Below are positions 1,228 to 61,637 of a stretch of 64,000 bases of DNA, piece by piece. Source of the stretch: Rhynchopus sp. YZ270_cl-10. Its lineage: Eukaryota. The notes beneath the pieces were generated by a model. That model saw only the letters and a list, made by a program, of their open reading frames with translations, was not told where the DNA came from and made no database searches. The number at the start of each line of letters is the position of its first letter. The stretch's first letter is position 1. The stretch covers positions 1,612,001 through 1,676,000 of the forward strand of contig OZ037847.1 of NCBI GenBank assembly GCA_964035575.1. Reading direction: 5' to 3'. Made by a program: the position numbers and the translations under genes.

Positions 1228-3153
1228 TGTAGGCACCAATATCAAGATCTGCTCCCCATGTCGACACAACAAAAAAGCGTTTCAAACCTGAGCTCCCGAG
1301 GGGCGCATCCTGTCACCAAGGCCTCGGAGAGAAATGGGTGTCAAAAAGCACGACCTTTTCTCTCGAGGTCATTACCAACCTTTTTTTTTTTTTTATACTT
1401 TGTTTTTCACGAGTGCGTGTCGCTATGACAAATGTTTTTTGGTTTTTGTGTGTTGTTTTCCCCCTCATTGACCCGCATTGTCGGTGTACTTATGTGTGCA
1501 GTGGACTTCACTTTTTTTCCTTGATGTTTGCACGATGCACATTTATCTTTAATTTTTTTTTTTTGTATAGGTGACTTGGCGAGAGGTCGCATAGATCATT
1601 CAATATAGATGCTGCGCTGCATACCCGGCAAACCCGAACCCATAACCGGGTTAACAATACATCCGTCAACTGTTTCGAGGATAGTTGCAAAGTAAAACAA
1701 ACAAACAAAAAAAATCTGTTGCGAATTATTCGGCCTTCAAAATAAAAGCGACTTCTCTCTTTTCCCCATTCACTATGCTTTTGTTAAAGCCTTTTTCGAG
1801 TTGCGTACCGTGTTTTAGAAGAAGAAAAAAATGTGTTATTAAGCCCTTGACAGGGTGATTATCGATGTTTTATTTTTAAAATGTACGTGCACGACAACGT
1901 TCATATTTCAGAGTTTTTCTCAAGGTGGCTAAGCACAGGCTTGGGTTTCACCTTATCAACCTTTTACCTTTTTTTAAAAGCTTCCTCGGTAGGTTATGGT
2001 GGGAAACAAGAAGGGGAAAAAAAGCTTTGCACAAAGTGGCAGACACATATTCACTCCGACAATTCATTCAATTAAAATAAAAAAGTAAACACAAGAATGC
2101 GTTGATTCATTACATTTATTATCGTCAAACTTTCCAAAGGGAATCCGGGCACGCGGCGAGAACATGCAGGTGAGGAACATTTTGGCAAAGGGTTTTACAG
2201 GTTTACGGGATCGTAGCTGTAGACTTTGCCGTGCTTCTTTGATTCACTTACAAAGCGCCGGAAAACTCAAATAAAACCTGTATTAAGTTTGGCTGAATAA
2301 GGACAATGGAGCTCATCCTCAGGTGTCTGCATGAAGATACAAAAATTACAAATGCAAACCCCTTCAGTCTACACTACAACCAAGTTTTCAATAAGGGTTT
2401 ACAGCACCAAAATAACCCTCCAATCTGTCCATACTAATGCATAAGCTAAGTGCATGAGCAAAACCCTCCCTCAGTCAAAAAAAAAGGTCAAAACATTTCA
2501 AGGAAAAATGGGGGTTTAGGTAGTTCCGAGAACGCTATTTTTCGAGCATTTTATATTTCGCAAGAATCCGCAGCTACCTTTTCACCTTCTTCTCTTGCTT
2601 TGTGACTGAGACACAAAAGCCTTTATTGTGTTATTTTGATATTGCAGTTGTCATGAGTTGCTTTTGCATCATGGGCTACAAAGCATGGGTATGATTTGCA
2701 CCAAAGAAATGGGGGTTTTTGTTGTTTTGTTATTCTTTAAAAAAAAAAACATGACGCGAAGATGTGTCCCCCCTACCTAGCGATGCAGTGCATCTTTGCA
2801 TTGCATTGAGAGGTCCTCCCCTCTCCCCTCTCCCCTCTCATCTGCACCCCAAACCAAATTGCATCGACATGTAATTGAGTCTCCACCCCTTTTGTTCCGG
2901 TAGTTTTTTTCTTTATTCTGATTTTCCCCCTTTGAAAAATTATTCCACTCTCATCCTTTCCCCCCCCTTCCCTCCGTACACATCAACTCCGATAAAAAGA
3001 AAGCAATGTGATTAGTTCTTGTGCAACTCCTGCACCCACACCTAATCCCCTCATCCCCTCCTCACACCACAGGATCCTCCAAGAGGAGGTAGGAAAGCGG
3101 GGAGGGATTTTTTTTTTTGGTTCCCACATTTCCCCCCCCCCTGAAGAAGTGAA

Positions 3154-14113: not shown

Positions 14114-16754
14114 GAAGAAGCTTGGTGTGGGGTGCAGTAGGGGGGAGCAAGAGATGGGCAAGGGAGAGAGGAAACATTGCAGATGGTCTTTTGTTTCGGT
14201 ATTTTGTTCGTCCTACGTTGGGCACCTTTGTTAGAGAAAGATTGTGGTCAAGAAGGTGGCTAAGCTCAGAGAGGCTTATATTCATATTACAAACATTTTT
14301 TTTTTTTCCTTTTGTTCCGATGTGGGTGCGTGTAGTGCACATCCCCTTGTCTTTTTCAAGGTTTCTTTTCCCCCCTTTGCGTGTCCCAGCGCGATAACGA
14401 TAGTGGAATAATATGTGTATGTGATTGCACAGTGAGACGCTCTCAAATTTTATTTTATTTTTGTCTTCACAAAGGTGACGAAGCCTGAAAACAGCTTTAT
14501 CTCACCTTTTACCTTCTTTATTTTTCATACAAAAGTTGCGATTTCTTTGTGTGTGTGTGTGATTCAAAGCACGTAAGACTTAGGTTTATCTTACAAAAAA
14601 AATGGCTATTCAAATGATAACCTATATTGGCGTTGATACGGTGGTTTTATTGCATTTGGTGACAATTTTGAGCACTCCTAATTTTTGGAGTTGCATAAAA
14701 ATGATGCTCAAAACCGCGAAATTCTTGCTTAATTTGCATTTTTTTGGGCTCAGTTAGGTCCACAGTAGTGGTGGTATTTTTCAAGTCGAGGGTACAGAAA
14801 ATTGTCACCAAATGCAATGAAAACCTTTTAAATAGTGTGCGGAACTGAAAAGAACCCCCTTTTTTTTTAGCAGTTTTTGAAAAAGCCTTTTGCATTTTAT
14901 TTTTGCAAGAAAATAAAAAGGGCACCCCATTTCTCTCGATGTATCCACAGTACTGAAACACTCACTGTTGCTGTACTTTTTTTTGAGGCACACACAAAGA
15001 CAACTTGAAAGTGTGTGCACGAGAGTCTTGGTACTCTTGCAGTTCGTCTCTTTTATATAGCGCCCTTTTCATTTTGATTTTTTTTTGTCACAAATTACAT
15101 CCTTAAAGTTTAGTTATGTCAAGAGGTGATTTTGTTTTGTTTAGTTATATGTTTGTCTTGTTCCTCTTCCTCTTCCACTTCGAGCTGACCCCATATCCTT
15201 CTTTCTTTATTCAAAAAAAAAAAGGCGACATTGAGTACAGATCCTGCACTAGCAGGTGATTGTCGACACAACAAAAACAGCATAGCTTGCATAGGGCAAC
15301 TACACTATTCCAACAATTCTTCAAAGAAAAAGGGGGCAATATTGGAATACCATATGTTATTTCAATGATGTAGGTGACCCCTTTTTGCCAGTTGTGTGCG
15401 TTTAGGAAAGGCAACTTCCTATTAAGCCCGCCGACTCCATTTTGGAGCTTCCAGGACCGTATGATTCGTTCCCTAAGGAATGGTTAAGAAAAGTTTTTCG
15501 AAAAAGAAAAATAAACGTAATGACACCAAAATGACGTCAGACCAGGGATCCCAATTGTCTCACGTCTGCCAGACTCTTCGGGGAGAGATGTCTGTAAGTA
15601 GTTCCTAGCCACCGCATGGCATTGAGGACAGAACCTACCTCCTTGGTGGGCGATTGTCGATGCAAACAAAACGAAATAAGTGCTTGGTCCCCAGAAGGTC
15701 CAACAATGCGAGTAGGTATTTTTATTTTTATTTTTTCATCAGTGTTTGCGTCCGTCCATGTAGGTGAGGCGTTTGCATGTTTCAACTTTCTATTTGTAGG
15801 ACATACTTTGTGGTTGTAAAAAAATAATGTCGAATTTCGTGTCTTTTCTCTCTGTGTCTTTGTTGCACAGTATCATTGGGGGTATGGGGTGATTTTTTAT
15901 AGCTGAATAAAAAAAACAGCAAAACGTGTCAACTACTATCAGAGCAAAATCCTTTTCTGATACGAATTCCACCTCTCTGAGACCTTTATTTTTTTTCCAT
16001 TTTTTATCCTTACCCCATTTCTGTACTTCAGGAAAAAAGGGGATATTTTTTTGGTTCACTCACGTCGCACCCTTCGCATGAGCTCGACCGATCACGAGCT
16101 GCATTTTAGCACGTTTCAACTACTCTTTTTTCTCTTTCCTGCGTCCGTAAACCGACTTGGTTGGTAGCGTACCAACTGAACAAAATACATAGTGGAGCAC
16201 ACTCTAGGGTGGCTACACTAATACAACCAAGTTTTCAAAATACGAATATAGGGGGGGCTCCATACAAGGCGAAAAGGAGAGATTTGAGATGCTATTTTTT
16301 GCCAATCTTTTCTATTTTGCGTTATGTGTCTGCACGTTGGTCGACACATCCATCTGGAAAAATTTACCCCTCCTTTTTTTTTTTTTGTGTCTTTTAGCCA
16401 GGCTCTCCGCTAGGATTTCCGATTTTGAAAATGTTCTGTTGATGGTCCACGTGGTGGGGTACATGCTTGCGCCGCAGGCGCACGGTACGCAACTTTTTTT
16501 TTTTCAACGCCCGATTTTGACTTTTTTGGGACGTTTGAGCACTCACCTCTCCATATCTTCTTCTCCTGAGCTTTTTTGACAAGTAGAACGGGTCTGAACC
16601 ACTCAGCAGAACTTTTTTTTTTTTTTTTTTTTCCCCATTTTCAAAAAGTTCTGTTGACAATCAACAGAACTTTAGTACCTAGCGGAGTGCCTGCTTTTAG
16701 CTCTCACAACCCTACAGAGGGTTAAAAGGAAACGTAAGCATTCTGCTCTCAGAA

Positions 16755-29098: not shown

Positions 29099-30183
29099 TA
29101 GTGATAATAGCACCCCGCAAAAAGGTGTTCAATACAACACAGCAAAAGGAGTTATAGTATGAAGTGAGGCACCATGGTGTAATGGCGAGAAATAAAAACA
29201 ATGACAGCAATAAACAAAAAATAAAATACAGTAAAGTAAATGTGCTCTGAAGGTTTCCACCAATGCACACAGGGATAATTTTGTCTTTTTTTTTTTATTT
29301 ATTTTCTCGGTGTCTGCGTCCCGAGAGGCGTTTGCACTTACAGCTTCGTTTTCCCATTTCTATTTCAGCATGTTCTGTGTCTCTCCCAGCACAGCATTTT
29401 TTTTTAAAGTCATCCTCAGTTCTACACAAAACCTACCGTTCATCTGAAACAAAAAAAACAATGCAATATCGTGAAGAAGTGTTCTTGAGTACTGTCCCAC
29501 TATTGCATCCAGAGTATTCACAAATTCCCCCGCGCCGGGTCCTTTCATGGCGGCTACACTAAAACAGAGTTTTAAAAAAAGAAACAGGTCTTTTTATTGT
29601 TTTGAGGGGAGCTGAAGGAGAAGAAAACGAAGAAAAAAAAAATTAGGTGGGCAACTTTTTTGCTGTGTTTATTTTATAATTGGGTGGTTTTTCTTCAATG
29701 TTGTTGGAGGTGACTAAGCGCGAGAAGCCTTACGTTCATCTCACCAACTTGCTTTTTAGTCGGTCGAACACGTCACGTTCATCGAACGAATTCCTGAAAC
29801 ACTAAATGAAGTAAAGTTTGCAAAACCCTATTACCCCTTCGTACATAACAAACAAGGAGAGCAAGAGTGGGGTGGGCTGGGTGAGTACCCCCTAACACCT
29901 GCCTTTAACACCCACCCAACCAAAGTGTTCATACGAAAGGGGGGCGTTTTTTTTAGAATTTAGAAGAAAACCTAAAAAAGATCACTACACAAAAATAGCC
30001 TTTCCCCCCCCTCCCGGGCCCTCCCGCTCCACTCCCTTCCTTCTCGTCCGTTTTTTTATTTATTCTTTTCTAAAAAAAAACTTCCAACCAAATGGAGAAT
30101 TACCCGCGACACACCCCCAATAAAAAAGCACCCATATTTTTCCCCATCATTTTCCTTCATCGCTCAAAAGAGGGACGTCACTA

Positions 30184-30886: not shown

Positions 30887-30941
30887 AAGGTGACTAAGAC
30901 GAGAGGCTTAGGGTCATCTTATAAACTTTTCTTTCTTGTAG
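30887..30941 (+). promoter_or_regulatory. Family A stem-loop plus ATAAAC-polypyrimidine-AG, probable trans-splice acceptor of HPF1
   Basis: AAGGTGACTAAG-ACGAGAGG-CTTAGGGTCATCTT-ATAAAC-TTTTCTTTCTTGTAG, 28 nt upstream of the HPF1 ATG. One of about 20 same-strand copies. Confidence 0.55.
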
Positions 30942-30969: not shown

Positions 30970-32455
30970 ATGGAGGGTCCGCCAAAGAAGAAGATGCGTG
31001 GGTCTCCTGTTAAGGGGTCACCACTGAAGGGGTCACCGAAGAAGGATGCAAAGGGAAAGGGTTCTCCGAAGAAGACAGTGACGGTTACAACACCACCGCA
31101 GCATGCGTCGGAGGCGCCCTTGACACCGCCGGCACCGACGTTGGGGTCGCCGGCAAAGCATGGGTCTCCTTTGGCACCGACACTGTCGCCACCTGGGTCG
31201 CCTCGGGTGGTGGGGGAGGATGATGTGAAGGGTGCTTTGGAGGATGCGTACGGCATGCCCATGCCTGCAGAGCTGGCTGCGGTGTGGTCCATCGCGTTGC
31301 GGTGCAGAGCAAAGTCACCTGTCGAGGCATTCGCCTCCCTCGGGGTACGTCTTGTGGGCCCCTTCGAAGTGTTAAGTGGCCACCTCGCATCAGACATCGA
31401 TGTGCATATGCAGTGGCGCTACAAACACGATCCTCCAGAGACAATGACAGTCCTCACAGACGCAACAACGAACCGCCCAGTGAAGCATTGGTGCTATCAT
31501 AGGGACGACCCAGCGAAGCTTCCCACCATGGTTGTCAAAGGGAACAAAGGTATGGGAAATTTTTTAAAAAGGATTATTTTGTTTCAAACCACACCACACA
31601 GGACATACCTTTACTATAGAAGGTGCCTCGCTTTTGGGTGTGTTATTAGGCCTCAGCAAGGAGACGAAGGTACCTTTTTTCATCCCATTTTCCCCTCCCC
31701 GAATTTCAGTATTTTTTTTTTTATGCGACGCAAAGAAAAAATACGAGGCAGTTCATATCACCTTTTTTTTCCTCTCATTTCCAGAACGACAGCACTGCAA
31801 CACCTCGCACCACATTCCCCTTTCCTAAAGTGACTAAGCACGAGAGGCTTAGGATCATCTTACAAACTTTTCTTTCCCTTCCCATCAGGATACCAAACTG
31901 ACCAGCCTTCTTAGCGACGCTTTAGGCAAAAAAAAGGAGCCGGGATCACGCGCCGTACGCGATGCGCGGTACAAACAGAGCTTGGGACGGCCTTTTAGTG
32001 GTCTGGGTATTAGTGTACCGTATGATAAGAAGACGGAAGTGGGGTATCGGGGACTGGGCATGGAGGGGGCGAGGCTGAGGGAGCTGGCAGAGGCGATGCA
32101 GGTGGCGGAGGCACCTAAGAAGCAGGACACAGCGGACTATGGGGAGCTGTGCACCTTCTGTGACATTGCGAACGACGAAGGCGATTTTGGCCATGCTCTC
32201 GAAGTCGGGCTCGACTTCTTCGCGCTCGCAACCGGCGACACCGTCATCCACAGAGAAGCCCTGCGGCTCCTCGATGTTGCCTATATGCTTCTCGGTCGCC
32301 AGCTCTTCCGCAGCACCATCACAAAGCTCATGGCCTTCCGCAGCGACCCCAGCAACCCCCCAGTGTGCAAAGGCATGAAAAAGCAAACCCTCCCCCTCGC
32401 GCACCCTAGCATTTCCCAAACACTCAGCTTCATGGGAGGACCCTCCAATTTGTAG
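30970..32455 (+). CDS. HPF1: Histone PARylation factor 1, 3 exons
   Basis: VGPFEVL, WRYKHDPPE, YHRDDP, FSGLGISVPYDKKTEVGYRGL and ANDEGDFGHALEVGLDFF match HPF1 motifs. Exons 30970-31549, 31602-31669, 31889-32455. Confidence 0.88.
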
Positions 32456-33620
32456 GGGTGAGGGAAGGAGGGAGGGAGGGTGGAGTACATCGTTGAAGGT
32501 GGTGTTGTTAATACTATTTCCCATGGTTAGTTAGCCAAAGAAAGCTGTGCTGCTTTTTTTTTTGGGAGGAGGGGCATGGTGTCATGCTTGTGTACATATC
32601 TTAGGAGCGTGTTTTTTTTCACAAAAAAAGAAGAAGTGAATTCAACCATTTTTCCGTTTCGCGATTTGCTCCCAGTTTGTTTTAGAATCAACAATATGTA
32701 AAGGTTTGATAGTAGGGATCGGAGGGGGTGAGAGTGTTTGGGGAAAAGAAAAAAAAACAAGAATTGGGTCAATCCAGACCCTCAGTTTAGTTGCCAAAAA
32801 AAAAAGGTAGTTTGTTTTTGCCACGATTTTCAGAGCATGTATAAGAAGTGAGATTGTGGATTTTTTCCCCTTTCTCCGCATTTCTTTAAATGGATGCATG
32901 TTTTTTATAGATGCTAACATACGTATTTTTTGTGGTGTTTATTTCCCCCATTTTTTTGTCTTAATCCCTTCTAGAAGAGGGGGTTTGTTTATTAGTATAT
33001 CGGTGACTAAGCACGAGGCTTTTTTCCACCTTTACAAAACTTTTTTATTTTTATTTTACAGAACATTCACTTTCCCTTTTTTCTCTGGGGATCTGACTCG
33101 CGTTCTTCCCTGTGTGACAAGACAATGCCTGCAGGGGGCAAATCCCGCCCTCTTGTGTTTGCGGATTTTTGTTTTGTCTCCTCCTCTCCCCCTCTCCCCT
33201 CCTCCCATCCATCCCACACCCAACGAAAGAAACACTGTTCCATATTTTTCCTCTACCGCGGTTTTTTGGCATACACACACACATAGTGCCAACACTACAC
33301 CAAAGCAGGTTCTTGAGGACTGCAGCCCAACAAAAGTCACTGCCTAAAAGCACTGCCACCGATTTCTGCTCCGTGTTTCACTGTTAGTGAATTGCATTGG
33401 CAGGACTCAGGTGTGTCCTCCTTTCTTCGTAGAGGCGCTTTGCAAACGCTCAAAGCAGTGCATGCGGCTGGCGCTGTACGATACCGATACCGGTAGTGAA
33501 GAAGGGTGCCTCCCGACAAAACCTTTATTTCCCCTTTTTTTTGAATCTACTGTTCCACCACCACCCCTTACCCCTTCACAACACCAAAAAGGGGGTTATC
33601 AACAACAACACAAAAGAACC

Positions 33621-35153: not shown

Positions 35154-36031
35154 GCTCCCAACATACCTCTTCTCTGCCTCGGGTCCTTTCGTGTCAAAGC
35201 CCACACAATAAATGAACCCCCTCAGTATTTTTTCCTCAGTGGAAAAGGCTGAGTGGGGTTGAAGGGATGGGATGTCTGTGGGTGAGGGTGGTGGGGGGAG
35301 GTGATCCAGAAAACATTGCTCACCTTTCCCCCCCCAGACCTGATCTCCGCTCCTCTCCCTTGGGTTTGTTTCTGGAATGTCTTCTCGCTTTTTAGTTTTT
35401 TTTTTTTGATAGGGTTAAAAAACCGTTACTGAGATGCAGGGAGGAGGGTGTACCGATGATTGGGATACAAAGTAAGATGTTTGAAATAAAGTTCCCAAAA
35501 CGAGCCAAAAAAGCAAAAAAAAAAAAATGTACACAACCCACTTGGCGATGTGTCGAAACAACAACTGCGACAACAACAAAACAAAAAAAAAAAAATCAAA
35601 ACAACACCCACCCTCGGGTACACCTGTCTCAACCTTTCCCGCATCTCTTTTTCCCATTATTATTTTTCTGTTTGAAGACAATAAAACGAGAGGGTTTTTC
35701 TACACTCTAATGTAGACACCTTTTGTCTTTATCATACCTTCTTTGAAATGATTCCTGCATCTATTTTGTGACTTAAGCGCGAGAAGCTTAGGATCATCTG
35801 ACCTTTTTTTCTTCTTTTTTTTTGCATTGTGCAACCCGACCGTGTCTTCGTGATAAACCTTGTTTCCCTTTTTTTCTATATTTTTTAGGTTCTTTTTTTA
35901 AGATACTTTTATAGGGGCTATTTTTTTTGTTGATTCGGGTCATTGAGGAAAGTTGTGTATCTTGGATGCGCAACTGCCTTTCAATAGTATTGGGGTATGG
36001 GGGGGGTGTAGTGATTGCTGTATTGGGACAA

Positions 36032-36099: not shown

Positions 36100-37822
36100 A
36101 TATCACAATACATCCACCACTAAGTGTAGGGTGTGATATTCATTTGCAGGGCAACGCTACGTGTACCTTAAACCACGTCTTCCCTCTGCGAGAATGTCAT
36201 TTTTTTTCTTATATTTTTTTTTCAGCTGAAACTCCAAGGGTTTACAGTATTTCCAGTAGGTCCTTTCTTTTTCTTGTGTGTGGGTTCCCCCCCCCTTCCC
36301 CCCTTTCCCCCAGGAGTGTCTGGACTGGTTTTAAGTATATCTCTTCGCCCCTTTTTTTGAAGGGGGGGTTTTGTTTTGCTATTCCATGGATATGTGAAGT
36401 TGTGTGTTATTAAGGTGATGTGTGTACATTGTGAGGCACATTCGTCTTTATACGTTTTCTTTTTTTGCAGTTGAACCGTTCGCAGACGCTCCGTTTCCCA
36501 ACACGAAAAAAAAAAAGAAGAAGAAGAAGAAGAGAAACAAAAGACAAAAAAAAGAGCAAAATTACCAAAAAAAAAAAAAAGAAGCAAAAACAAAAAAAAG
36601 CAAAAAGGTTACTCTTTCTCTGGGGGGGATTCAAAAAAAAAAAGTAAAAAAATAACATTTTTTGGCAAAACGAAAAAATACAAAGTAAAAACGAAATATG
36701 GACTGGCCTTGTGTATCAATAGGTAGAGAGAGAATGTCTTCTCACGCACAACAACTGGGTAGGTGGAAATAGGCACACACACAACTCTGCCAACAACTTT
36801 CAAAAAAAGGACGAAACAAAAAAAGGGGGGAGTGATCATTCTTTGAGAACAACGTATTTTTCTAATTTTTTTTTCCAACCTTTCTTTTTTACCCTAAGAA
36901 AATGTATTGAAGACCCGCCTATTTTCACCAAGGTGGCTAAGGTGAGATTAGGTATCTTTAACTGCCCCCACCTTTCCCAGAGTGAAAAAAAACAACTAGA
37001 GTGGAGCTCATCCTCGGGTGTCTACAATCCCAAAAAGAACCAAAAAAAAGTGAGTGCGTAAAAAAGCAAACCTCCCTCGAAGTCTACACTAATCCAACCA
37101 AATTTTTCAAAACAACGAAGAAATGCAACTAGACTCATACAATGTAAGTACATACCAGCCTATGTGTTTATCATTGTTGCAGTTCTTTGTGTCCTTGTGT
37201 GTCCAGAAGGAATGTTGTAGAAACCATTTAAAAAACCCCCCGAAAAAAAAGGCGACACTGTGTACAGATCCTACCTCGGTAGGTGATTGTCGATACAACA
37301 AAAGGTGTCAAGGGACCAGCGCTCCTATTCGACTCTGCAGCCACACACTATGGGGATGAGGTGTGCTGTCTGTACCGTATCCCTCACCTTTTAGGGTGAC
37401 ATTTTGAGCACACAGCACGTATTTTGTTGGGTGATTGCTACGGTTTGCATCGTTTTCTTTTCATTTCCATTTTTTTTGGAAAACACAATTTGGGATTTTT
37501 AGTTGTCCACGCCCCGTGTGTGTTGTTTGTGTTGTGTGAAGTGAGCGTTCGACAAATCTTTTGCACATCTTCACATTTTTTTGTTGAGAGAACGATGTCC
37601 CCCAGGCCATACCTTGGCGAAAAAAAGGAGCTATTCGTTTTGCCTCTGAACCCCCCCGCCCCCCTTTCCCCCCCTCCCCCCTGCTTCTCCGTTTGTCGTT
37701 ATGTATACTGTCAAACCAAAAAGAAATGAATGGGGGGGTCTTCTTACTTTTGTCTTCCAATCCCACATTCCTCCCGACAAAACACTCATTTCTGTCGTAA
37801 CGCTCGGAGGACGTTATTTGGT

Positions 37823-41395: not shown

Positions 41396-44025
41396 GGCAC
41401 ACAGCACCTCAAACTCCGTTAACATTTTTTTTGTGGTACCTCCATCAGCACCACTAAAGCACCCCAATCAACCCCCCTTGTTTTTTTTTGTGCAATGCAC
41501 AAAAAAAGAAAAGGAAAACACAAAATCAAAAGGGGGGGCAGAAAAGTGCCAAATATAAAAAATCAGAAAAAAAACAACAACAAAAAAAACAAAGATAATA
41601 AGAAGCATCAGCTTCCATAAGAAACCCCTTGCCTTACCCCCCCAGTTACAGTGCTGATTTGGCAGTATGTCTGTGCATTGATATTTTTTTTTTTTTGGAT
41701 ACTGCAAATAAGTGGTAGGGGGATGGAGGGGATGGAGTGGGGTTGGACACAAAGGGTTTCTTCTCGTATGTTTTTTTTTGTGCTTGCATTCAAGTTTAGT
41801 TTGCGCTCTTGGTTTACATACATACCTTTGTTCGGTGACTAAGTGCGAGAGCTTAGGATCATCTTATAAACATGTTTTAAAAAGCAACTGACACACAGTT
41901 AATCAAGGTGTGTCGTTCCTCCCCCTAAAGGGTTCTCATCCCTTCCTTCTCTTTGTGCAGGCGGGGCCCTACGTAGTGGCACCTCTCTTTTCTCTAACCT
42001 AATCTCTGCCACGCACACAAAAAAAAACCCCCCCCCCTCCTGTTGTGGGTGATTTTTTTTTGTCAATATTGCTAATATAAAAAGGGGTGGGAAAAAACAA
42101 AAAGTAAAAAATGTAAAGTGGAGACGTTTTGGGGTAAAAAATGGTCGTTTTCAAAATATACAAAATGCAAAACAACAAAAAACCCCGTCCCAAAAAAAAA
42201 AAGCAAAAAAAAACTGGATCTGTCAGAAACGAGTGAAAATGAGGTACAAAAAAGAGATTATAACAAGAGTTTTTTTTTTTTCCTTTTCCAAAGCCACCCC
42301 TTCAGATGCCCCTTATTTTTCTTAGCCTTGTCTTGCCAGTTGCTTCTGTTCTAGTATCCGATTATTTTCTCTCTTTTTTTGCGGACTCTTGCGGAGAGAG
42401 GTGGGGGGATGGGGTGTTTTCTCCATCAGGGCTTGCCAACATCGAATAACTGTATCCATATTCTGTACTGCCCCAGTATTTTTTTTTTAAATAAAAACCT
42501 TTTGAAAATTTTTCCCCCTGAGGGAGGAAAAATCTGGAAGGAAAACGCGGTTCTTTTTTTAAAGATGTGGAAAGGTATACATGCCAACTTTTATTGTAAG
42601 GTGCCTAAAGCACAGGCTTAGGTTCATCTTTTTCCGTATTCGTACAAATTATCCGTCGTAATTATGTTCAACCTTTTTTACGATCGACAATTTGTATGAA
42701 TACTGTATTTCTTTTTGTTTTGTTTTGATCGTCACTACCTTCTTCTCATCAACCCTCACCGCCCTACCCACGGTCTGCGGAAGAATTTTTCCCACATTTT
42801 TTTTTTTTTTTGATCAGTTTGATAGAAATTCTTTTGTACTAACTGTGCCTCAGCACAGCAGGGCTTAGATTCATAAAATACTTCATTATTTCTGTTCGAA
42901 CAGAACGCAAAATGAAACAACCATGAATTTTTTTTTCTCGTCTGTCTCAAATTACTTTGGAGGGTCTGATTTTATCCTTTCAAAAAAAGGTGGAGGGAGT
43001 GAGTGTGAGGTCCATTCCAGGCTTTTCTCGCAAGATGATGTGTTGGCGTGGAACATTAATATATTTCACGTTTTATTCTAAATAACAGCTTGCTGGGTGG
43101 GTTGGGGGTTATCCAAAGATTTTTTTCCTTTGGAGTAATGCGAGAAACATCCGCATTTCAAAACATTTTGTTTGGCAATTTGCGATTACATTTTATTTTA
43201 TTTTTTGGTCGGACCGAGTTAGGTTAGGTGACACAGAGTGATTTTTTCAAAAAAAATAACTGAATTAAAAAAATGGACCAAGTCAAAAGCGACATAACAA
43301 TAGGAATGAAAGACGAACAAAATAGTGCACGTATCACACCCACTTTTTTTTTCTCTGCTTTCACCCCCCTCTCCTTTTCAAGGTGACTCATCACGGAGGC
43401 TTGGGTTCATTTTTTGTCAACTTTTTTTTTTGTCAAAAAACCCAAAAAAAATATTCACTCCACAATGTGCAGTGGAGGAGGTGCCAGAGGTTATTTTTTT
43501 TTTTGTGTCCCCACCTACAAGAAAAAAGTAAACGCATAAAAAACAATGGAGATCACAGGCAGCTGTGTGCGCTGCAGTATTTTACTCCCCCCTCCCCCTC
43601 AACAAAGTAAAGTAAAAAGTATTAAAAAAAATAGATAAAAGGAGTATTCATCAAACAAGTGGCGGAAGGGAGGTGCGGATGAGGGGAAGTTTTATATTGT
43701 TTTTTTGGTGGTGTACGTTTTTTTTCTCTGTCTTTAGAAGATGATTATCCACTGTAGCTCAGAGAAGCAATCCACCAAGCACCGTTTTAGATGTGCGTTT
43801 GCATGAGCTCGTACCTACATCTTTTTTCTCGTGTTTTTTTTTTTTTTTGTACTTTCTCGTGAGTTGAAGGTATATGAAACTAATCTTTTTGTCGGTGACG
43901 CACAGAGTCTTACCATATTATAAACAAATGTTTTTCTGCTAAGACGGTGCGCGAGAGTGTGTTGTGTTTACCTCAACTGGGAGGGTTAAATGCAAACCCC
44001 CTAGCTAAAAAGAGTGATTAACTCA

Positions 44026-46518: not shown

Positions 46519-46574
46519 GACACAAAATAACATTATAAAAGATTGCATCAATTTTTCTTTTTACTCGTTTCCCC

Positions 46575-46666: not shown

Positions 46667-46777
46667 ACATAATGTCTTCACGCCTTCTTCAAAGCAAGGC
46701 GTCACCGAAGCTGGTTTCGTGGTCTTCAATACTGTCTTCTTCCTTCATTTTTTTTGTCAGTCTTTACACATAGGCAT

Positions 46778-47131: not shown

Positions 47132-48315
47132 TATAATACATCAACAAAATCTTGGATAAGCCTCGTCAAAAAGGAGGGCGAGAGGACGAAGGGGGAGGGA
47201 GAGAGAAGGTGCAAAACCCAGAGCAGAAGGGGTGTGATGCATCGTGTAGTGCTCTCTATTGAAGACGTAGAGGAAGGGAGGTGGCGCCCCTGATGAAAGT
47301 GCGGAATTCGAGGCCCATTTTTTGCGGAAATAAAAAGGGCGGAGGATGGACGCAGGGTAGTTGCCCCGCACCAAGGGCGGGTGTCGTTTTTAGGTCAGAG
47401 GGACGTTTTTTTTTTTGTTGTTGTCTTGTCAGTGCCTGCGTCCCCCGATGAACGGTGAGGCGTTTGCACTTTCAACTTCTCTTTGTCTTTCATTTCAGAA
47501 AAGAATAAGCCAACTTTCAATTTCGGTGAGGTGATTTTATTGTGGGAGGAGGGGGCGGCATTACACAATGGGAAGGCCCGTTTCAAAAGGACAGCCACTT
47601 CGAGCCGTGCAGGACACGGTGCATTCTTGTTGTGTTATGTTATGTTTTTTTTTTGTTTGTTTGCTTTTTAAATTTTTTGCCTTTTTTTTACCTTCCCCCC
47701 CACGATTCAACGTTTTCAAAACACCCCCATGCATGCATTGTGCATTTGTGGTGCTCATCCTGTAGGATTTCCCTTTCCTTTGCATTATGTTTCAAGCTTA
47801 ACTTAAGCACCTAAGGCTTATGTTCGTCTTCAAACTTTTATATTTTTTTTTTGCTTTTTTTGCCTATTTTTTCTCGAGGACATGCAACGTCTCTTAACCC
47901 TTAATATGCGGAAATCATAACAAGGTCACCCTCTCTTGACCCCCAGCATGCGAGGCATATTTTCATCTTTCTACAGTAAGCTACCTTTGTTTTTTTCTGT
48001 TCAAAGCTGAAATTCCAAAGCCTCCGTGAGATTTCTATTGTCTTTTCCCCGTTTTTTCCCTCCCGTGTACACTTGACATAAGTGCTGCTACGTGAAAAGA
48101 CCACCCCCGTTTCACCCCTTTTTACCTGCAATGTTAAGGTGTTGTGGTTTGAATACTTTCCGAAATGACCTAGTCCTCCGGCAGTGATGTGTCGTGCATG
48201 GCACTCTATGGGTGTCCAACAATATACCCGTCTCCGTCCCATCGCTCGTTACACCTGTTTTGTCATCAAATCACCTCACAACTTACACCCATCGTCAAGA
48301 ACGCAGCACAGGACT

Positions 48316-49414: not shown

Positions 49415-51111
49415 ATGCCTGCACGGAAGAACGACCCACCCAGCGACAAGGTGCTGCAGGGGTGTATCGATGAGGTGCACTCGCTGACGGGGGTCTCGGC
49501 ACTGCGCAATGCTACGGCAGCCACACGGCTGTCCATCATCCTGCGGCTCGAGGAGATTGAGGTATGCCACAGTGCACTCACGGGCACGCAGCTTTTCCCA
49601 CTATTATCTTAGCCCACACATGACTACCCACCACCACCTACCACAGAAAGCAGTCGTGCCGCTCGAGGTGTCGGCAGCCAAGGTGCACGACCGTGAGATC
49701 CTCCTTGCAGAGCTGAGCCTGCTGCAGGACAGGCTGGCAACACGCACAGTGCCGCTGGACGACATGCACGACGACGAGGAGAGCCCGCTGCTCACGCTGC
49801 CGAAGAAGTCCGGCGACGACGGAAAGCGGCGGCGCGCAAGCCGCTCACATGTCCTCGGCTTTGCAGACAGCGAGGCACGCAGGTACGTGAAGACGTGCCG
49901 CGGTAAGGACAGCCGCATCCACGTGCGCAGCCAACGCACCAAGACCACCGCCGAAGCGGTCCTGCAGCAGCAGAACCTTACCGGGAACGCAACACGCTGT
50001 GTGAAGAACTACGCCGACCTCTTGGAGGTGACGCAGGCAGCGCAGTTTGGTATGAGCCCCCACCCCTTCATCCCTTTACTCTCCCCCTTGCAGGAACACA
50101 CCAGCTGCTGCACCAGCCACCCGACATCCTGGACATGGTTGTCCTCTCCGGCGGTGTTGTCTCGCCGCACACAAAGGAGACCAAACGCCCCATTGCAGAG
50201 GTGCCGTCTCCAGAGCTGGTGAACATCGGCCGCAAACCCATCGTAGACAAGGGCATGCGACAAGACCAGATCATCCTCAGCAGCAACCTTGCCATCGATG
50301 AGGAGCAGCTCAAGAAGGACATCCAGCGCGAGCTGCCCAACGTCTGCGACGTTGAGATCCAGTACCAAGAAGATGTGAGTGCGACAGGCTCCGTCAGCGC
50401 TGTCCTCGTCTTCTCTTACTCTGACCCCATCTGCCAGAAGTCTGCAAAGTCTGACCCCCTGAAGGACAGCCGCATAGAAGAGCTGACTGAGCCTGTCAAG
50501 GAAATGCCGTCCATCAACGCAGGCAAAGAGGGACGCAGCCCAAAGCAGGAGGACTCCAACGAAGAAGGCATGTACGCCAAGCTTGCCAACGGCACATTCA
50601 CCAAGGTTACCCCCGACCCCTTCGAGAGAGAGAAGCAAGTACCGGAGGTGGTCAAGACCACGCGCAAAGAGTCCAAGCAAACCGCCAAGGCCCCCGCAGT
50701 GAAGCAGTCGTTCATCATGGGATGCACAAAGGTGGAGTTGGTATGTAGAAAGGGGGTTGCGTTTTTTTTTCTTTAAATTTTATCCGAAAACACACACAGA
50801 TGGCATACGTGGTGATCACAATGGTCTTTGTCGTCCCGATGGCGTTGTTCTGGTATGCAATGCGCCCACCCCCTTTCCCTATAGACCGAAAGTTTTTTGG
50901 GTGACCCCTCAGCCCCTCAGCCCCTCAGCCCCTCAGCCCCTCAGCCCCTCAGCCCCTCAGCCCCTCAGCCCCTCAGCCCCTCAGCCCCTCAGCCCCTCAG
51001 CCCCTCAGCCCCTCAGCCCCTCTCAATGCTTTCTGTCCTGAAGCATGGACCTACTGTTTTAAACCTCCCGAAACACACAACAGCTGCTGGGTGATCAAGC
51101 TCTTCTTCTAG
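49415..51111 (+). CDS. Hypothetical tail-anchored membrane protein, 5 exons
   Basis: Exons 49415-49561, 49647-50049, 50094-50740, 50800-50852, 51084-51111 join in frame. Ends in hydrophobic LMAYVVITMVFVVPMALFCCWVIKLFF. Confidence 0.7.
50905..51022 (+). repeat. (CCCCTCAG)14 tandem repeat in an intron
   Basis: 14 full 8-bp units plus a partial unit, read directly. Confidence 0.97.
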
Positions 51112-52890
51112 GCCTCGTGACTGCATGAGGTGAACAGATGAACACAAGCCAAGGCTTATCTCAGAGTCCTGCTTGCTCCGGCAGTTCAGGTCAGGCGCAT
51201 CAAAGGGTGCAGCAAGAAGCCGATGACACGTACACACCGCCTGGGACCACCCCAAGACCACACCACTATGTCATATTAACGCAGTCATATTTTTTGAATT
51301 AATTTCCCCTATAATCCCTTCTCTACTTCTTTGAGCGGAGGGGCTGTTCCCTACGGGCCCTCCCGATCGTGTGTAGCTGTTTTTTTTTTGTTTCGTTTTA
51401 GATGTGTGTGGCATGCAAAGGTGCTGTTCTCCAGAATAGTGTCTTTCTTTACCAATTCCTTCACTTCGTATTTAACGCTGACAGTGCAGTGGTGCATGGA
51501 CTGGGGTTGTGAGCACTCAACGCAACCAAAACATATTTTTAAGGTGACCTAAGCACACAGAGGCTTAGGTTTATCTGACAATGCTTCTTAAAGTATCCCC
51601 ACATAGACAATATTTGGATGTACCGAGCGTTAGAAATCTCTCTTCAGCTGCTCAAAGATCAAGGCCAAACAAATGAAAGTGGAGCTTGCACAACGGCAAC
51701 ACAAACCGAGGCAACTACACTAATCCAACAATTTTATCGAAAAAAAAAAAAATAAAACAAATATTTGCCGATGTCTACACTAAACAGATTATAAGAGAAT
51801 CTAGCATGTTGTGGCGGCCTAAAAGGCTGTCAAACCTTAGGGGTGATACTTGCATTTTTTTGTACATCACCGCCCTTTTGTCGATTCTGGAAGCACAAAA
51901 AGTAATACAAAAAAACATCATCTCCCACTTGATGTCTCAGGTGAAAAAGAGTTGACGACAATAATGATAATTGCAAAAGAAAAAAAGGAAAAAAAAAAAC
52001 GTTTTCTGGTTTCAATAAAGCACACATTTTTTTTTTTTGGGGTTTTTGGGGTCGAACTATCGTCTGTTTTTTTTATAAATTTTTTTAATGTGTGTGCAGG
52101 TGTTTATACTAGCGGATTAGGATTTAAGATTTCGGGGAAAACTATAAATTCCCTGAACAAAAGGAAACAACGAGAACATATTTCCAGAATTTTGATGTTT
52201 TTTTCTGAGAACAAAGATCCTGGAAAAACAGCCCAAAAATTGCAGGCAAAACAAAACAGGGCATTTTTTTTTTCGGATTTAGATCTCGGAATTTGGCCAA
52301 AAAGGGTATGATTTAAAGAAATGCTTGTGCAAACCCTGTTGTTTTTTTTAAATCTTTCTTCATTCCTGTATTCGCTTCAGGACAGAACCCAGCTCTGGAT
52401 GATTGTTGATGCGAAAAAAGTAAAAAAAAATGCGCTGTTTCAACGCAAAGAAAAAAAGGTCACCCTACAGGTCGTTGCACACACACGCCGATTTATGTAC
52501 AAATGTGCTGCCATCATGTGAATCTCAGCTTTCTTATGTATTGCCATCATTCATCTGTTTTGTTTCCCTTCCCCCCAAGAGAACCTGACAAATAATTTTT
52601 AAGACCAGGAAGACTCGTCCCAAACAAAAAAGAAAAAAGGGCTGTTTCCAGCCAAGCGCGAGGTATTATTGTACCTTTTTTTTGTATTTGTTCAGTTCTT
52701 GTAACACTCTACCCACCTCTCCAAGGAAGTCAGCAGGGGGGAGAGAGGCTATTATGAACGAGATTCTTGGCTTCCAGGGGGGTGTCTTTATTAGGTACAC
52801 TGTCAAGAGAGGGTTTTGTATTACAAAGCCAACTTTTTTTTAGTGTTCTTTCTTTTTCGTACACAAAAATTTCTCAACATTTGTTGGAAC

Positions 52891-53019: not shown

Positions 53020-53410
53020 ACTGCGTTTTTTTGATCTGTGTGTTTGATAACTAATAGGGGCAATTCTTGCAGAATATGGCTCCAATGTGTGTGTTCTGTG
53101 ATGCATATTCATCGTTTAAACCTTTCTAGGGGGAGACGAAGAGGGACTCTTCTGTGTTTTGTATTAGGTTCTTTTTGTATCCCCCCCCCTCCCCCAGCCT
53201 GCCTATAGGATAGAGTCCTGCGTTCCAATCACATTGCGCTCTGTTCACTGCCTGGCAGATCTGAGTCGAAACCGTGAAAGGAAAACTGTACTGTCCACAA
53301 CACCCGGCACGTTATCTCCCTATGCTATGCCACGTGAGGCAAGAGCTGTATTGTACAATAACGGTTCTGTCTCTCTGTTGCTACCCGACATTCGATTTCG
53401 TTATTTTTTT

Positions 53411-53575
53411 TACGCACACTACTTTGTGAGCGGAAAGTGTCACGTCGTTCACTCACCCAACCGTGCTCCGCAACACCACCACCCAACAGGTGATTTTTTA
53501 GTGTGTGTGGAAGCGTCAACGCATCAAACAACTACAAGAAGGGGGGTGAGGGAACGACAAGTGACACTTTTTTTT
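53411..53575 (+). repeat. 165-bp direct repeat copy 1, self-folding, ends in oligo-T
   Basis: Nearly identical to 54482-54645. Internal arms 53434-53458 and 53544-53570 are complementary. Confidence 0.9.
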
Positions 53576-54481
53576 GTGCTTTTGGCACTGTCGTGCCTGC
53601 ATCAGTCTTGATGCATCTGCTTCCGTCACGTTGCTTCCTATGTTCAGGGTACCCTTGCGAAAGGGTGTCATCACAAAGCAAAAACAAAACCAAAAAATTT
53701 GGGGGACAAAATGGATTACAAAAATTGCACTGAAAAGGAAGAGAAGGGGAGGGGAAAAAAATGGCTGTTTTTTTTTTTTTTTTTGAAGGTTGGGAAAGTG
53801 TGTGGCTATCGGCGCACAGAGATTTGTTTGGGGGTGGTGGGTGAGCTCCTGGGTGGGTGCATTGTGCTGCCCCTTAGTGAACGAAACTTAATAATATAAC
53901 CCCTAACCCATTCGGGGTGACAGTCATGTGTACAGAACTGTGTCTTTGGTTATTCGATGCTAAAGGGAAGGCCCGGCTATGGTGTCTTTTTTTTTTTTGC
54001 TTTTCTTTGCAAAATAGTATTTATTCACCTCCTAAAACCGGCGCACGCTAACCCCCCTTTTCTTGTATCGACTTTGTTCGTGGAGTACTAGGTGATCGTT
54101 TTAGGTACTGGTGGCTGTATGGCGATAACTGCCCATCATAATACACAATACAGCTGTACTGTGCTGTGGGTATCGAAGAGTCTCACTTTTTTTTTATATA
54201 AACCACGAAATGGATGTAGGACTACATGGTTGGGGTCCACCCCACGGTGCACCCGGTCATGCACCAAAGGTACACTGCCAAGAGCGGGTTGTTGTATGTC
54301 AAGGCAAGTTTTTTGGCTGGGATTGATACCCACCCTGGAGGGAGTGTTTTTTACGTTGTTCGGGAAATGCGATTTTTGTCAAGATCAGGTTTTCAGAGCT
54401 TTAAACTTTTAAGATTTTTTTCTTCATGTGGTTGCATTGTGTTGTTTTGTTGCATATTTTTTTGTATTTCTATTTTTTTTT

Positions 54482-54645
54482 TACGCACACTACTTTGTGA
54501 GCGGAAAGTGTCACGTCGTTCACTCACCCAACCGTGCTCCGCAACACCACCAACCAACAGGTGATTTTTAGTGTGTGTGGAAGCGTCAACGCATCAAACA
54601 ACTACAAGAAGGGGGGTGAGGGAACGACAAGTGACACTTTTTTTT
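54482..54645 (+). repeat. 165-bp direct repeat copy 2
   Basis: Differs from copy 1 by one substitution and one T indel. Confidence 0.9.
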
Positions 54646-56467
54646 CTCTTCTCTCTAAGGCCAGAATTCCAGAGCTAGAAAAAAAAAGGAAAATGGTCCC
54701 AAGAACCATTCTTGGTCCAATATCGTTCTACAGAACCGGTCATGTACCAAAGGTACACTGTTTTCACGAGAGGGATTTTTGTATTTCTGGTCAAACTTTT
54801 TTTTTGGGGGGAATATAGATATCACAGATGGGGTTGACTACACGGTATCAATTTTTAATTCTTTTTTTCCCTCTCTAAAACAGAGATGACAGCTGCTGTG
54901 CAGGCCTTATGTGTGGTGACCGTTATCAGGTTTTTTCAAAAATGATCTGTTGATGATGACATGGTTTCTGCAATTCATTTTCTTTTATGACCCCCTAACC
55001 GGTATGATGGGGTTCGCGTTCTGGGAATAATTAACAACAACAAAAAGTAAGTTTTTCCCTCCGTGCAAATCTACATCTTTACTTTGTAAGGCGACTTAGG
55101 CTTAGGTTGATCTTATAAACTTTTCATTATTTTACCCCTCAATCTTCAAAGAAGGAACAGAAGAGAGCTTTTTTTTCTCACATATTTTAAATGAAATTCC
55201 CCCACAGACTCATTTGGTACTCGCGCTCTCTTAATCCTCTTTGCGTTATTTTTTTTTAAAAATATTTTTTTTCAAAGAAAAAGGAAGGGGAAAAACCGCA
55301 AGGGAACAATACCTTACCTCTGGTTTTGAGACCCGACCCGTGTACTGTACACAGTGTTGGGGATCAACAAAACTGCAATTTGTCCCTTTTTTTGTTTCCC
55401 TCATTGATGTATGAGATCGTCAAGCTATTTTCGTTTTTGTTTTTCATTTTTCAAATTTTTTTTTCCTCCGGGAAAAAAAAAAATCACTGGTACAAGCCCA
55501 TCTTCTCCCCATCCCTTCTAAAGTGTTATGACATTAAAAGATCAGCGAGGATGTGGAGATCACCACAGGGTGTGCTACTGTGTTATCAATTTCTTAAAAA
55601 ATTTTTTTTTTCAATTTTTTTCAAAATTGGTAAAACTTTTCTGCGACAAGCAAACAGTTTTTGCCACCACGGGGGAAAACACACAGCTCCGACAATGAAG
55701 ATTCTATACCGGTAGCTACACTAATCCAAAAATTATCAAAAAAAAAGAAGAAAAAAAAAACACACACACATGGCTACGCCAAGGGGAAAGGTGTTTATCA
55801 TAGAGTCCCACAAAGGCGCCGTGTAGCAATACAGCGAGACACTGTGCGGTATATTCTTCTGTTTCATGTTTCCCCTTCTCTCAAAGGCGTCAGCTGTGTT
55901 GAGACATTGTTGCTGAGACATCGCGTCAACGCTCTCTTTTTTGTGCTCATATTACTTTTCTTGTATTTTTTTTTCAAGAGAAAAAGAAAACAGTTCACCG
56001 ACAGAAACACGTTTGGACATACAGTACCATATCATAGTTGTCGCAACGTATAATGCAGAACCTTCTAAATGGTTTTGCAGCGCCGCTCTTCTCGCGCTTT
56101 ATCCGCAAAACTGAAGGCTCAGAATACAAAAAAAACCGCTAAGAAATAATTTAAAAAAAAAGAACAAGGTGTGGGAAACAGAAGTCAGACCTTAAAAGAA
56201 ACCCTCTCCCTCTCTCCCCCTCCTCTCCCCTTTTACCTTCTCTCCGCTACACCCCCACACTCTGACGCTTCTACAATGAGGACTACCTTACTCGAACCGA
56301 TTTAGGCTTCCAAACTTGCATCTTTTTGCTCCTATTTTAGGTTCATATTTAGGGTTCTATTATAGCTATCCTTGGCATGTCTGGTCTTTGTGTCCACCTT
56401 TATGATAGGAGCTGCTAACTACGCTTTGCTACACGTTGCTACATTCCTCTCAGAAACGAATTCGAAT

Positions 56468-59526: not shown

Positions 59527-61637
59527 TGCAAGAGAGGGGGCAGTGTCTTTAACTTCAAAAAAAAAAAGGCTTGTAATAATTCTCGTTCATGTGAACATCC
59601 CTTTTTTGTAGTGTGGCAAATGCGATGTAGTGCACCTCGAGAGGCGAGTGTGTGATTAAAATAATTTTGTCAGGGCAGTGCAAAAGGGCCGCTTTAAAAA
59701 GGCGTTGCTTTACACGTTCCAAAACACAACGCGAGGTGGATCTTTCTGTATTCGAGTCGAATTTGTATGGTGATTCGGTGGAATGTGCGATTTTATTGGT
59801 GAATTTATTGGTGTGTGTGTGTGTACACGAGAGGCACGTTTATCTTCAAGTTTATATTTTTTTTTGTTTACCCAGACTTTTTCAGTGCTTCAGGTAAGTA
59901 CGTTGGGTTAAGCCGAACGAACCGTTTTTTATATGCTGTGGTGCGCCCTTTGCTTTCCTTTCTTGTGAATGGAAAGTATGTGAATTTGCATTTCCCTCCC
60001 ACCAATCTGCGCAAACTTTTCAGCACATTTATATGGTATCCGCAGAGGCGCTTACACTTTCTCGTGACTAAGAATCTGAAGCCTAGGTTCATCTTTCAAA
60101 CCTTTCCCCCCTTCCAAAGAACAAAACCGAACGCAGTGAGCCTTTGTGTGTTTTTTTCTTTGTGTTTTGTGCTATTTTATTTTCCTCAATGAAAAGGAAT
60201 ACACCAGATCTTTTTCAACCCTCCCCCTTTTTTTTTTCCACGCCGTGTTCTGTCTTCAAACGTATTTTGTAAAGTGGAAATAAAATTTGCGCCGTTTTTC
60301 TCACATTCACACATTTTCTAGTGACTGCCCCTGCGTACGCCGATGAACGGTGAGGCGTTTGCACTTTCAACTTCTCTTTTCTCTTCTCTGAGGTACCTCC
60401 TGCTTTTCGCAGGCTTCTTTCGGGAGTAGAAATATGTGGGGGGTTTCTTTGTCATTAAAGATACGTCTGCACGTGAGACATGTTCATCTTTCAACTTTTT
60501 CTTATGTTCCCGCTGTGTGTGTTTTGGCAGAACGATCTTTTCAAGATGGCTAAATACAGAGCGGTTGACAGTGTATGGGAGATGTATTCACTCAAGACTT
60601 TTTTGCTTTTCAAATAAAAATTGTTCCCTACTTTATTTGATTCAAAATTCAAAAAACAAATTGTTCAAAATAAATAAATTGGGAGCGGAACGGCTCTGTG
60701 TCTTATAAAATATATTCTCCCCCCTTTTTTTTGGTGACCAAACACGAGGAGCTTTTGGGTTCATCTTATAAGCTTTTTTTCTTCATGACTGAGATCGTTG
60801 TGCATGATTCTCGAAACAGGAATGACTGCTGCGAAGCCATATCGAATTGTAGTTGACAATCAAAACAAAAAGGTTTTTGGCGTTTCCCACGCACTCTTCA
60901 GTTTACCTTTTTGTTGTTGTTTTCCTCCCCCCGATGATGTCCAACGCTAGTTATGCTGTCTCAAGGACAATGCATCATTTGCATCGCACATCGCCGTTGT
61001 CTATTTTTAACGTGTGTATAGGACTGATTCTTCTTGTTTACACGAGCGATTGTATGAGTATTTTAGTATGTGTTTCATTGTTTTTTGTTCAACGCAACAC
61101 CCCCCATTTTTCTTCTTTTTTATTGCACTTTTTTTTTCTGGGTTTTCCACATTTTTTTGTGAAGAGCTTTTTTTGTTTCTACCGCAGCATTTGTTTCTTT
61201 GTCGGTCTTTGAGGAGCGCAAAAAACAACGTTACAGTGCGAGTGTGCGCGAAGTGTGGTTATGAGAAACACATTTCATATTTTTCCAGTTTTCTTCCTCC
61301 TGTTGGTTGCTGGGACCTATGGAGATGGAGGGAACGCGGTGGGCACGCCATCCGCCATCCGCCATCCGCCTGGGGACTTTTTTTCATTCTCTTCTTTGAT
61401 TTTTCTTGTCTTTGCGCATGTTGTTGTGTGAGAAGTCACACATCTCAAGATGTGCACAGATGGAAAAATGAGGAAAAACTCTCCTCACCTTTGCAATATT
61501 TTAACTTGGCACTCTGACTGTTTCTTTTTTGCGATTCGGAGCTTTAAAAACCCTTTTTCTCGAAACGCCGTACATATTAGTCATACAATGCAGCGATGCC
61601 GACTTCGCCTGAAAATAGGCATGTCTGGAAAATCTAT

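Follow-up and report, generated by a model that had tools for sequence, protein, structure and literature searches.

A stretch of 64,000 nucleotides from Rhynchopus sp. YZ270_cl-10 (contig OZ037847.1, positions 1,612,001 to 1,676,000 of the forward strand; 'the window' in what follows) carries 19 copies of a short sequence with a predicted hairpin, here called family A, which is a high-copy interspersed repeat of ~49 nt on the gene strand and one of a set of sense-only hairpin repeats. We favor, at about an even chance, the reading that family A is a SIDER/SINE-like (SINE: short interspersed nuclear element) non-autonomous miniature retroposon, most copies of which likely have no role in splicing. 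A preliminary description had reported ~20 hairpin copies and no copy in reverse complement, and on both points it was right: the motif is present in 19 of 19 cases, all on the gene strand, and the window has no credible minus-strand copy. With nhmmer --max on both strands there were 24 matches, of which 23 fell on the plus strand and one, at 7.0 bits (E 0.39), on the minus. A covariance model run unfiltered had 36 matches at E<=10, among them all 19 training copies, on the plus strand at 26-58 bits; on the minus strand it had 7 matches, the top one at 20.6 bits (E 0.068), close to a noise level of ~20 bits (top score 20.3 in 208,119 bases of unrelated loci). Mismatch scans with each arm gave plus:minus ratios of 18:2 and 10:1.

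The abundance of the unit extends well past the window. Public DNA contigs carrying the unit of the copy at 31827 number 2,642, 2,125 and 3,129 in the near-identical sequencing runs X2, X5 and X4, and 131 in the diverged run X1, which is taken to be DNA from a diverged strain or relative on the grounds of its intergenic coverage and of there being no intron-skipping joint among the matches listed. Contig depth over this copy is limited to 31826-31877, with a rise at 31826-31830 and none by 31878, which delimits a unit of ~49 nt. Depth summed over the unit is 5,800-22,900x that of the flanks; as summed depth is not copy number, the abundance claim is limited to thousands. Loose contig ends at the unit are T-rich on both sides with neither a longer common sequence nor a fixed AG, its upstream flanks have no consensus apart from this T-richness, and the most frequent 5' flank genome-wide has C directly before AAG. 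Thousands of distinct contigs with sharp unit ends and unrelated T-rich flanks support the retroposon reading. The exact pattern had 0, 0 and 0 matches in metagenome, viral and prokaryote collections, and Rfam had 0 matches in the window at gathering score and 10 at E<=1, none over a family A copy. In 80 metagenome loci related to CFAP52 (identity never >75%, most of them short contigs resembling transcripts) the covariance model had 2 noise-level matches; these loci serve as a control but are too distant to test conservation.

Family A had been proposed to be an amplified RNA element positioning a branch point or splice acceptor. The amplified, strand-polarized hairpin stands, but the positioning role is not supported. 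By our 18 hand-built gene models (17 of them open to the expected stop, the other, g6, having approximate limits; all splice sites in the window are predictions), 18 copies are intergenic, 1 is intronic and 0 are coding, and just one of the 36 predicted cis acceptors and one of the 18 ATGs are close to a copy. Copies per intergenic interval track interval length (rho 0.80; p 0.88 for the fit to placement in proportion to length), and 9 of the 18 intervals have no copy though each needs a trans-splice site. One of 17 copies falls within 200 nt of an ATG, where 10.5% would be expected, and a Kolmogorov-Smirnov (KS) test of relative position gave p 0.16. The claim that the hairpin is usually followed by a pyrimidine tract and AG could not be upheld: the first AG is 2-139 nt off, and a polypyrimidine tract with YAG follows 5 of 19 copies versus 3.0 expected (p 0.18), or, with two copies at the predicted HPF1 gene set aside, 3 of 17 versus 2.8 (p 0.54). 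Nor is there a YAG at the constrained distance that a spliceosomal module would have, and most acceptors have no copy. Pyrimidines are in significant excess before the unit (p 0.0016) but not past its 3' end (p 0.32), and the upstream enrichment suggests a target preference. The family A tail is unlike the C/A-rich cis acceptors of this organism (last 20 nt summed over the 36 predicted introns: C 308, A 250, T 138, G 24), whose introns start with GTATG in 27 of 36 predictions; such acceptors and this intron pattern are published for Diplonemidae (PMC12621601).

Splice positioning is not supported as the general function of family A, given the scarcity of copies at acceptors and ATGs, the lack of YAG enrichment and the scaling with interval length. 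We see only a small chance that a hairpin-AAC-polypyrimidine-AG module sets branch points or acceptors in cis or trans, or, in a variant, that the copies are unannotated decoy trans-splice sites setting upstream poly(A) sites. What commends the idea is that the two most consensus-like copies lie directly before predicted HPF1 acceptors, that a polypyrimidine tract with any AG follows 9 of 19 copies versus 4.7 at matched sites (p 0.03), and that in Trypanosoma brucei 3'-end processing is reported to be tied to a short A-rich motif beside a pyrimidine tract (preprint 10.64898/2026.10.18.760011); the absence of a fixed AG from genome-wide downstream flanks, with half of the intergenic intervals copy-free and native cis acceptors C/A-rich, counts against it, as do the figures above. 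For annotators the units are a hazard as they mimic splice acceptors. The family A 5' arm resembles the consensus of a 5' splice site, yet 0 of 36 predicted donors start so.

The HPF1 copies deserve a closer look. As had been claimed, AG 31888 is the predicted acceptor of HPF1 intron 2 (31670-31888), with the frame open and HPF1 homology on both sides, and AG 30941 falls just before the HPF1 ATG, at a distance of 29 nt. Other in-frame ends of this intron are at 31852 and 31936; the former, in the 3' arm of family A, is an in-frame alternative acceptor that would add 12 residues. For predicted intron 1 an end at 31601 is more likely than one at 31619. The two copies have the top model scores and, over the 20-kb stretch for which depth was binned, the highest bin depths among family A copies, and so are likely the youngest. 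They are bounded by direct repeats of 6 nt (31827 copy) and 7 nt (30887 copy), with matched-flank P of 0.086 and 0.013. The earlier statement that no target-site duplication (TSD) is visible thus holds for the full set, which has no excess, but not for these 6- and 7-nt candidates at the two best copies. Since their flanks, taken alone, resemble an ordinary C/A-rich intron end and an ordinary pyrimidine-TAG acceptor, family A likely landed in existing HPF1 acceptor tracts instead of creating them.

The predicted fold has a 7-bp basal stem (one G.U), a 2-nt 3' bulge and a 6-bp upper stem, capped by a bulged A and C-GAGA-G, with an A-rich AAC tail and T-run following. In 15 of 19 copies folding is stronger on the plus than on the minus strand (mean z -1.89 versus -0.64 after correction for composition, p 0.0005; with DNA parameters p 0.06). 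Less remains of the structure-preserving stem changes, the G-U pairs specific to the plus transcript and the freely varying loop of the preliminary description: 80.1% of stem cells are paired versus 78.8±1.2 in shuffles (85/500), the covariation score is matched in 44/500, RNAalifold found neither pairs nor a consensus structure in the family A copies, G.U-type exceed A.C-type changes by just 15:7 (p 0.13), and the loop has its own consensus, the bulged A and C-GAGA-G, several variants remaining GNRA when read by eye. Stem cells plainly broken number 39, and the copies span everything from near consensus to decay (26-58 bits). As stems are conserved yet lack significant compensatory change, the most economical interpretation is that folding was required of the source element and that its copies decay; decayed copies without significant compensatory change are what a master that had to fold, with copies free not to, would be expected to leave. 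Eight bases of the loop are in common with an rRNA sequence that we take to be the sarcin-ricin loop, but derivation from it was rejected, the stems being unrelated and the bulged-G strand missing. Single-hairpin H/ACA guide RNAs have a pseudouridylation pocket 14-16 nt before the ACA/AGA box; family A has ACA or ATA after its stem, but only the 2-nt bulge and no two-sided guide pocket, and with no Rfam match at its copies it does not belong among them.

Might such units be selected where they lie, as cis RNA signals for protein docking or as 3'-end or stability elements in long 3' untranslated regions (UTRs), with family A and its sister families B to E forming a vocabulary? The plus strand does fold better, stems are more conserved than loop and tail, and the layout recurs in sister hairpins whose inner stems differ (26224, z -4.0). 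Of 17 copies, 10 lie no more than 800 nt past a stop versus 36% expected (p 0.047), Diplonema papillatum 3'UTRs being reported to have a median length of about 800 nt and its 5'UTRs to be near 70 nt (PMC10161547), and SIDER2 elements are reported to have been co-opted likewise. We nevertheless hold this to be rather unlikely, for covariation is not above shuffles in families A and D, scatter is length-proportional with tight clusters of decayed copies, and the stop-proximity result is marginal, one of several tests, beside the KS p of 0.16.

In the retroposon reading, the unit would be carried in polycistronic read-through RNA, where its hairpin would likely be read by a resident reverse transcriptase of the long interspersed nuclear element (LINE) type; hairpin and U-rich tail would be recognized and reverse-transcribed at nicked pyrimidine-rich sites, as with the 3' tails of stringent LINEs and SINEs. 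Sense-only orientation would arise because insertion is tied to the direction of transcription or because antisense copies are lost, a filter that would act on all short repeats; copies would decay afterwards, some perhaps being co-opted in long 3'UTRs like SIDERs. We infer mobility, enzyme, RNA intermediate and function alike. The grounds for this reading are the asymmetric ends, fixed orientation and pyrimidine-rich targets, the candidate TSDs of the likely youngest copies, and a stem-loop-plus-tail plan resembling what stringent LINEs require, their retrotransposition depending on a 3' stem-loop (PMC4176376), in a lineage rich in retroelements: gene models of retroelements numbering about 2,500 are reported from the D. 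papillatum genome, along with about 3,600 dispersed 28S pieces (PMC10161547). A sense fragment of large-subunit rRNA at 46530-46675, likely RNA-derived, was counted on the same side, as were the length-proportional placement outside coding sequence, with half of the intervals copy-free, and the sense bias of SIDERs in gene clusters (PMC2689281).

Several observations weigh against it. Neither a partner LINE nor an empty site nor a polymorphic insertion was seen, no whole-genome search having been made; family A copies have no poly(A) tail on either strand and, by Rfam, no tRNA, 5S or 7SL head; and the 19:0 orientation comes from a single 64-kb window in which the predicted genes are all on one strand. 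TSDs of at least 6 nt bound 2 of 19 copies versus 6.4% of mismatched pairs, or with looser offsets 4 of 19 versus 18%, and the tight offsets were picked after seeing the two HPF1 cases, in flanks of low complexity. Paired columns are more conserved than unpaired ones (0.84 versus 0.64, a difference inflated by the fitted alignment and by stem-based copy finding) and GNRA loops recur, which could reflect locus-level selection or detection bias. A distinct proposal, an antisense poly(A)-tailed SINE, was discarded because the tracts upstream of the best copies mix C and T.

Could DNA rather than RNA have been mobile? As a miniature inverted-repeat transposable element (MITE), family A would have its outer stem as a terminal inverted repeat (TIR) and would insert at TA. 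The stem is indeed a 7-bp inverted repeat, perfect at the G-C/G-U position in 3 of 19 copies, TA stands beside both stem ends in 3 copies, and the window does hold genuine TIR elements. With a symmetric target, however, insertions should face both ways, and 19:0 was observed; the conserved unit runs about 10 nt past the 3' arm, so that unlike the TIR elements of the window it has asymmetric ends as well as fixed orientation; and C before AAG is the most frequent 5' flank. The MITE reading is largely refuted by the fixed orientation, and its chances are very slim.

A single-stranded DNA hairpin of the REP, IS200/605 or Helitron type, with an HUH nuclease using the coding strand displaced in transcription and so fixing orientation, strikes us as improbable, though less so than a MITE. 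Shortness, a conserved basal stem with variable interior and a short conserved 3' tail, all common to A, B and C, would suit it, as would the lack of TSDs at most family A copies, and C-GNRA-G loops are stable in DNA as well. Helitron-like open reading frames are reported in D. papillatum (PMC10161547). Yet the two best copies have candidate TSDs, leaving that feature ambiguous, the strand advantage in folding shrinks when DNA parameters replace those for RNA, neither a CTRR end nor a fixed target dinucleotide can be seen, and a scan for the hairpins' common frame shows no strand bias outside known families (20 plus versus 12 minus).

Is the strand rule peculiar to family A? Profiles of 7 other short non-palindromic repeat families in the window gave 29 plus matches and 1 weak minus, 25 of the 29 being seeds themselves found by two-strand BLAST or scans, and self-BLAST of the window on both strands had opposite-orientation matches solely for TIR or palindromic elements. 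The rule is thus general to short non-palindromic repeats in the window, and because other short families have it too, strand exclusivity is no evidence for a function specific to family A. Targeting of T- or pyrimidine-runs alone was rejected as its cause, plus-strand runs being merely 1.5-2.2x commoner, with P(19/19) of 5e-5 to 9e-4. The tolerated 1.05-kb TIR elements (Table 1) weigh slightly against pure purging of double-stranded RNA and toward biased insertion. The generic GUG..CAY..AAC frame scan had 31 plus versus 14 minus matches overall, and a wider superfamily on that frame was given up on the 20-to-12 count outside known families.

Among these sisters, family B (6 plus, 0 minus) has a 2x2 pyrimidine internal loop and an AAC tail, and its copy at 47430 lies in the highest depth bin of a 20-kb stretch, above family A; A and B have loop-closing bases and the AAC-plus-pyrimidine tail in common, and intermediates exist. 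A further hairpin of family B build with different stems is at 26224-26264 (fold z -4.0). Family C has a conserved basal stem, a variable interior and a tail ending in AAC and an A/T run. Family D has two stems flanking an asymmetric internal loop that is conserved and has GA on each strand, presumably kink-turn-like; its inner stem is 93% paired, with two-sided change in 2 pairs, which is not above shuffles (112/500; 6 rows), and it is a better candidate than A for a selected RNA fold. Family E has several complementary blocks, two 5'-shortened copies and no Rfam match, and is possibly pseudoknotted or ribozyme-like. It is a speculative and rather doubtful thought that sense-only hairpin-AAC modules, in tens of thousands and several related families, are an RNA-level code in polycistronic precursors that was spread through RNA; were it true, they would serve 3'-end choice, as decoy trans-splice sites or in protein docking, and a post-transcriptional regulatory layer would be made of the smallest retroposons known.

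Table 1. Positions of family A copies and of other features in the window
Feature	Position	Strand	Score or basis
Copy nearest genome-wide consensus, predicted HPF1 intron 2	31827..31875	+	58.2 bits
Copy in pyrimidine tract before AG 30941, start 83 nt before HPF1 ATG	30887..30934	+	52.5 bits
Copy, intergenic	1922..1968	+	covariance model
Copy, 139 nt past kinase stop	14253..14302	+	covariance model
Copy, intergenic	14472..14522	+	covariance model
Copy, intergenic, GUAA loop	14556..14606	+	covariance model
Copy, 608 nt past CFAP52 stop	29707..29756	+	covariance model
Copy, HPF1-Vps26 interval	33000..33046	+	covariance model
Copy, 611 nt past Vps26 stop	35765..35814	+	covariance model
Copy, degenerate, intergenic	36930..36974	+	26.2 bits
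Copy, 436 nt past PP2C stop	41832..41879	+	covariance model
Copy, intergenic	42598..42644	+	covariance model
Copy, intergenic	42842..42891	+	covariance model
Copy, intergenic	43380..43427	+	covariance model
Copy, 5' arm decayed, intergenic	47795..47844	+	covariance model
Copy, 429 nt past a stop	51541..51591	+	covariance model
Copy, internal deletion, intergenic	55088..55128	+	covariance model
Copy, 534 nt past GDPD stop	60061..60109	+	covariance model
Copy, intergenic	60731..60781	+	covariance model
Possible extra copy, A/B intermediate	60458..60504	+	21.7 bits, near noise
Possible extra copy, outer stem and tail of family A, inner stem different but paired	36412..36462	+	19.6 bits, near noise; fold z -0.7
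Possible degenerate copy, GAGA loop	1569..1609	+	spotted by eye; fold z -2.7
HPF1 gene, predicted, 3 exons, host of the two most consensus-like copies	30970..32455	+	
Family B, high-copy hairpin repeat, plan similar to A	47430..47484; also 15740, 26174, 29309, 46358, 60325	+	
Family C	15284, 16192, 29539, 37001, 37067, 51695, 55697	+	7 plus, 0 minus
Family D	5246, 15227, 15618, 21787, 37254, 52378	+	
Family E, about 110-120 nt	38317-38424, 54201-54321, 54731-54808, 52793-52840	+	
MITE-like elements, common 14-bp TIR, interiors differ	1140-1226, 30184-30838, 37823-37931, 40666-40915		
1.05-kb element pair, 97-99% identical, same orientation, about 250-bp near-perfect TIRs	18623-19679, 24985-26042		
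Large-subunit rRNA 3' domain fragment, Rpn13-glutaredoxin interval	46530-46675	+	Rfam E 1.9e-8
Two-copy direct repeats	10093-10148/13692-13745; 17685-17734/53037-53086; 26140-26171/58302-58339		
Near-identical 180-nt local duplication, direct	53395-53575, 54466-54645		
Long microsatellites in predicted introns	28131-28350 (CFAP52); 50905-51020 (gene 49415-51111)		

Judged by its proteins, the source of the window is a diplonemid: the CFAP52 exon has 85% identity to D. papillatum CFAP52 and 93% to a transcriptome protein, euglenid and kinetoplastid matches being at most 70%. Pfam families in the window include CFAP52-like WD40, HPF1, Vps26, Pkr1, PP2C, Rpn13, glutaredoxin, kinases and others, each of them encoded by the plus strand. 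For D. papillatum, gene clusters on one strand, spliced-leader trans-splicing and RNA interference genes are reported (PMC10161547). One of the MITE-like elements is in PP2C intron 3 and another ends right before the pyrimidine tract of the 30887 copy.

As diplonemid genes are transcribed in long same-strand clusters, their regulation must be post-transcriptional, and in the literature searched no cis-element was found described for their long 3'UTRs. Family A and its sense-only sisters supply defined motifs whose positions can be compared with those of poly(A) and spliced-leader sites, in a group of which one member, D. papillatum, is transfectable. Even if inert, family A would be a very small retroposon with neither head nor poly(A) tail, and the common strand rule makes testable whether the mechanics of insertion or selection against antisense RNA polarizes repeats in polycistronic genomes.

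Where does family A stand among known repeats? Bacterial REP/REPIN-type HUH hairpins are extragenic, high-copy imperfect palindromes of 35-50 nt with a short conserved flank motif. For family A, by comparison, no HUH partner or guide tetranucleotide has been shown, and prokaryote and viral collections lack its pattern. It is not a classical SINE, there being no Pol III head and a 3' end of AAC and a short T-run in place of poly(A) or a simple repeat. With the 3' tails of stringent LINEs and SINEs (UnaL2, ZfL2-1/2) it has in common an upper and lower stem with loop and a short low-complexity tail, and its size and plan fit recognition by reverse transcriptase as set out in PMC4176376, but here the hairpin is the entire element, no head or promoter was found and the tail is U-rich and non-tandem. 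Nearly 10,000 dispersed repeat motifs, the most frequent occurring about 6,000 times, are reported from the D. papillatum genome (PMC10161547), likewise many and scattered but cited there with neither sequence nor structure nor orientation, and family A may be one of them or not; the literature searched on diplonemid repeats, UTR elements and genomes held no description of it, though Additional file 1 of PMC10161547 may list it or a related motif.

The suggested analogy with the SIDERs of Leishmania stands for placement, intergenic (18 copies, with 1 intronic) and sense (19 of 19, in one window) with a mild post-stop bias, but not for length and signature. SIDER1 and SIDER2, as the cited parts of PMC2689281 and PMC2424063 have it, are likewise degenerate, high-copy and intergenic in a polycistronic euglenozoan genome, mostly follow the orientation of the gene cluster, being sense-biased within it (PMC2689281), and rarely have visible TSDs. 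They differ in being about 550 nt long and G+C-rich with the 79-bp signature of the ingi clade, and in a sense excess of about 4:1 overall with antisense copies enriched in spacers, whereas family A is a 49-nt, AT-rich single hairpin, 19:0 sense in the window; judged by length, not by direct alignment, a unit shorter than the signature itself cannot be counted as a SIDER. Family A is apparently a hitherto undescribed and unusually small variant of the sense-biased interspersed repeats of euglenozoans.

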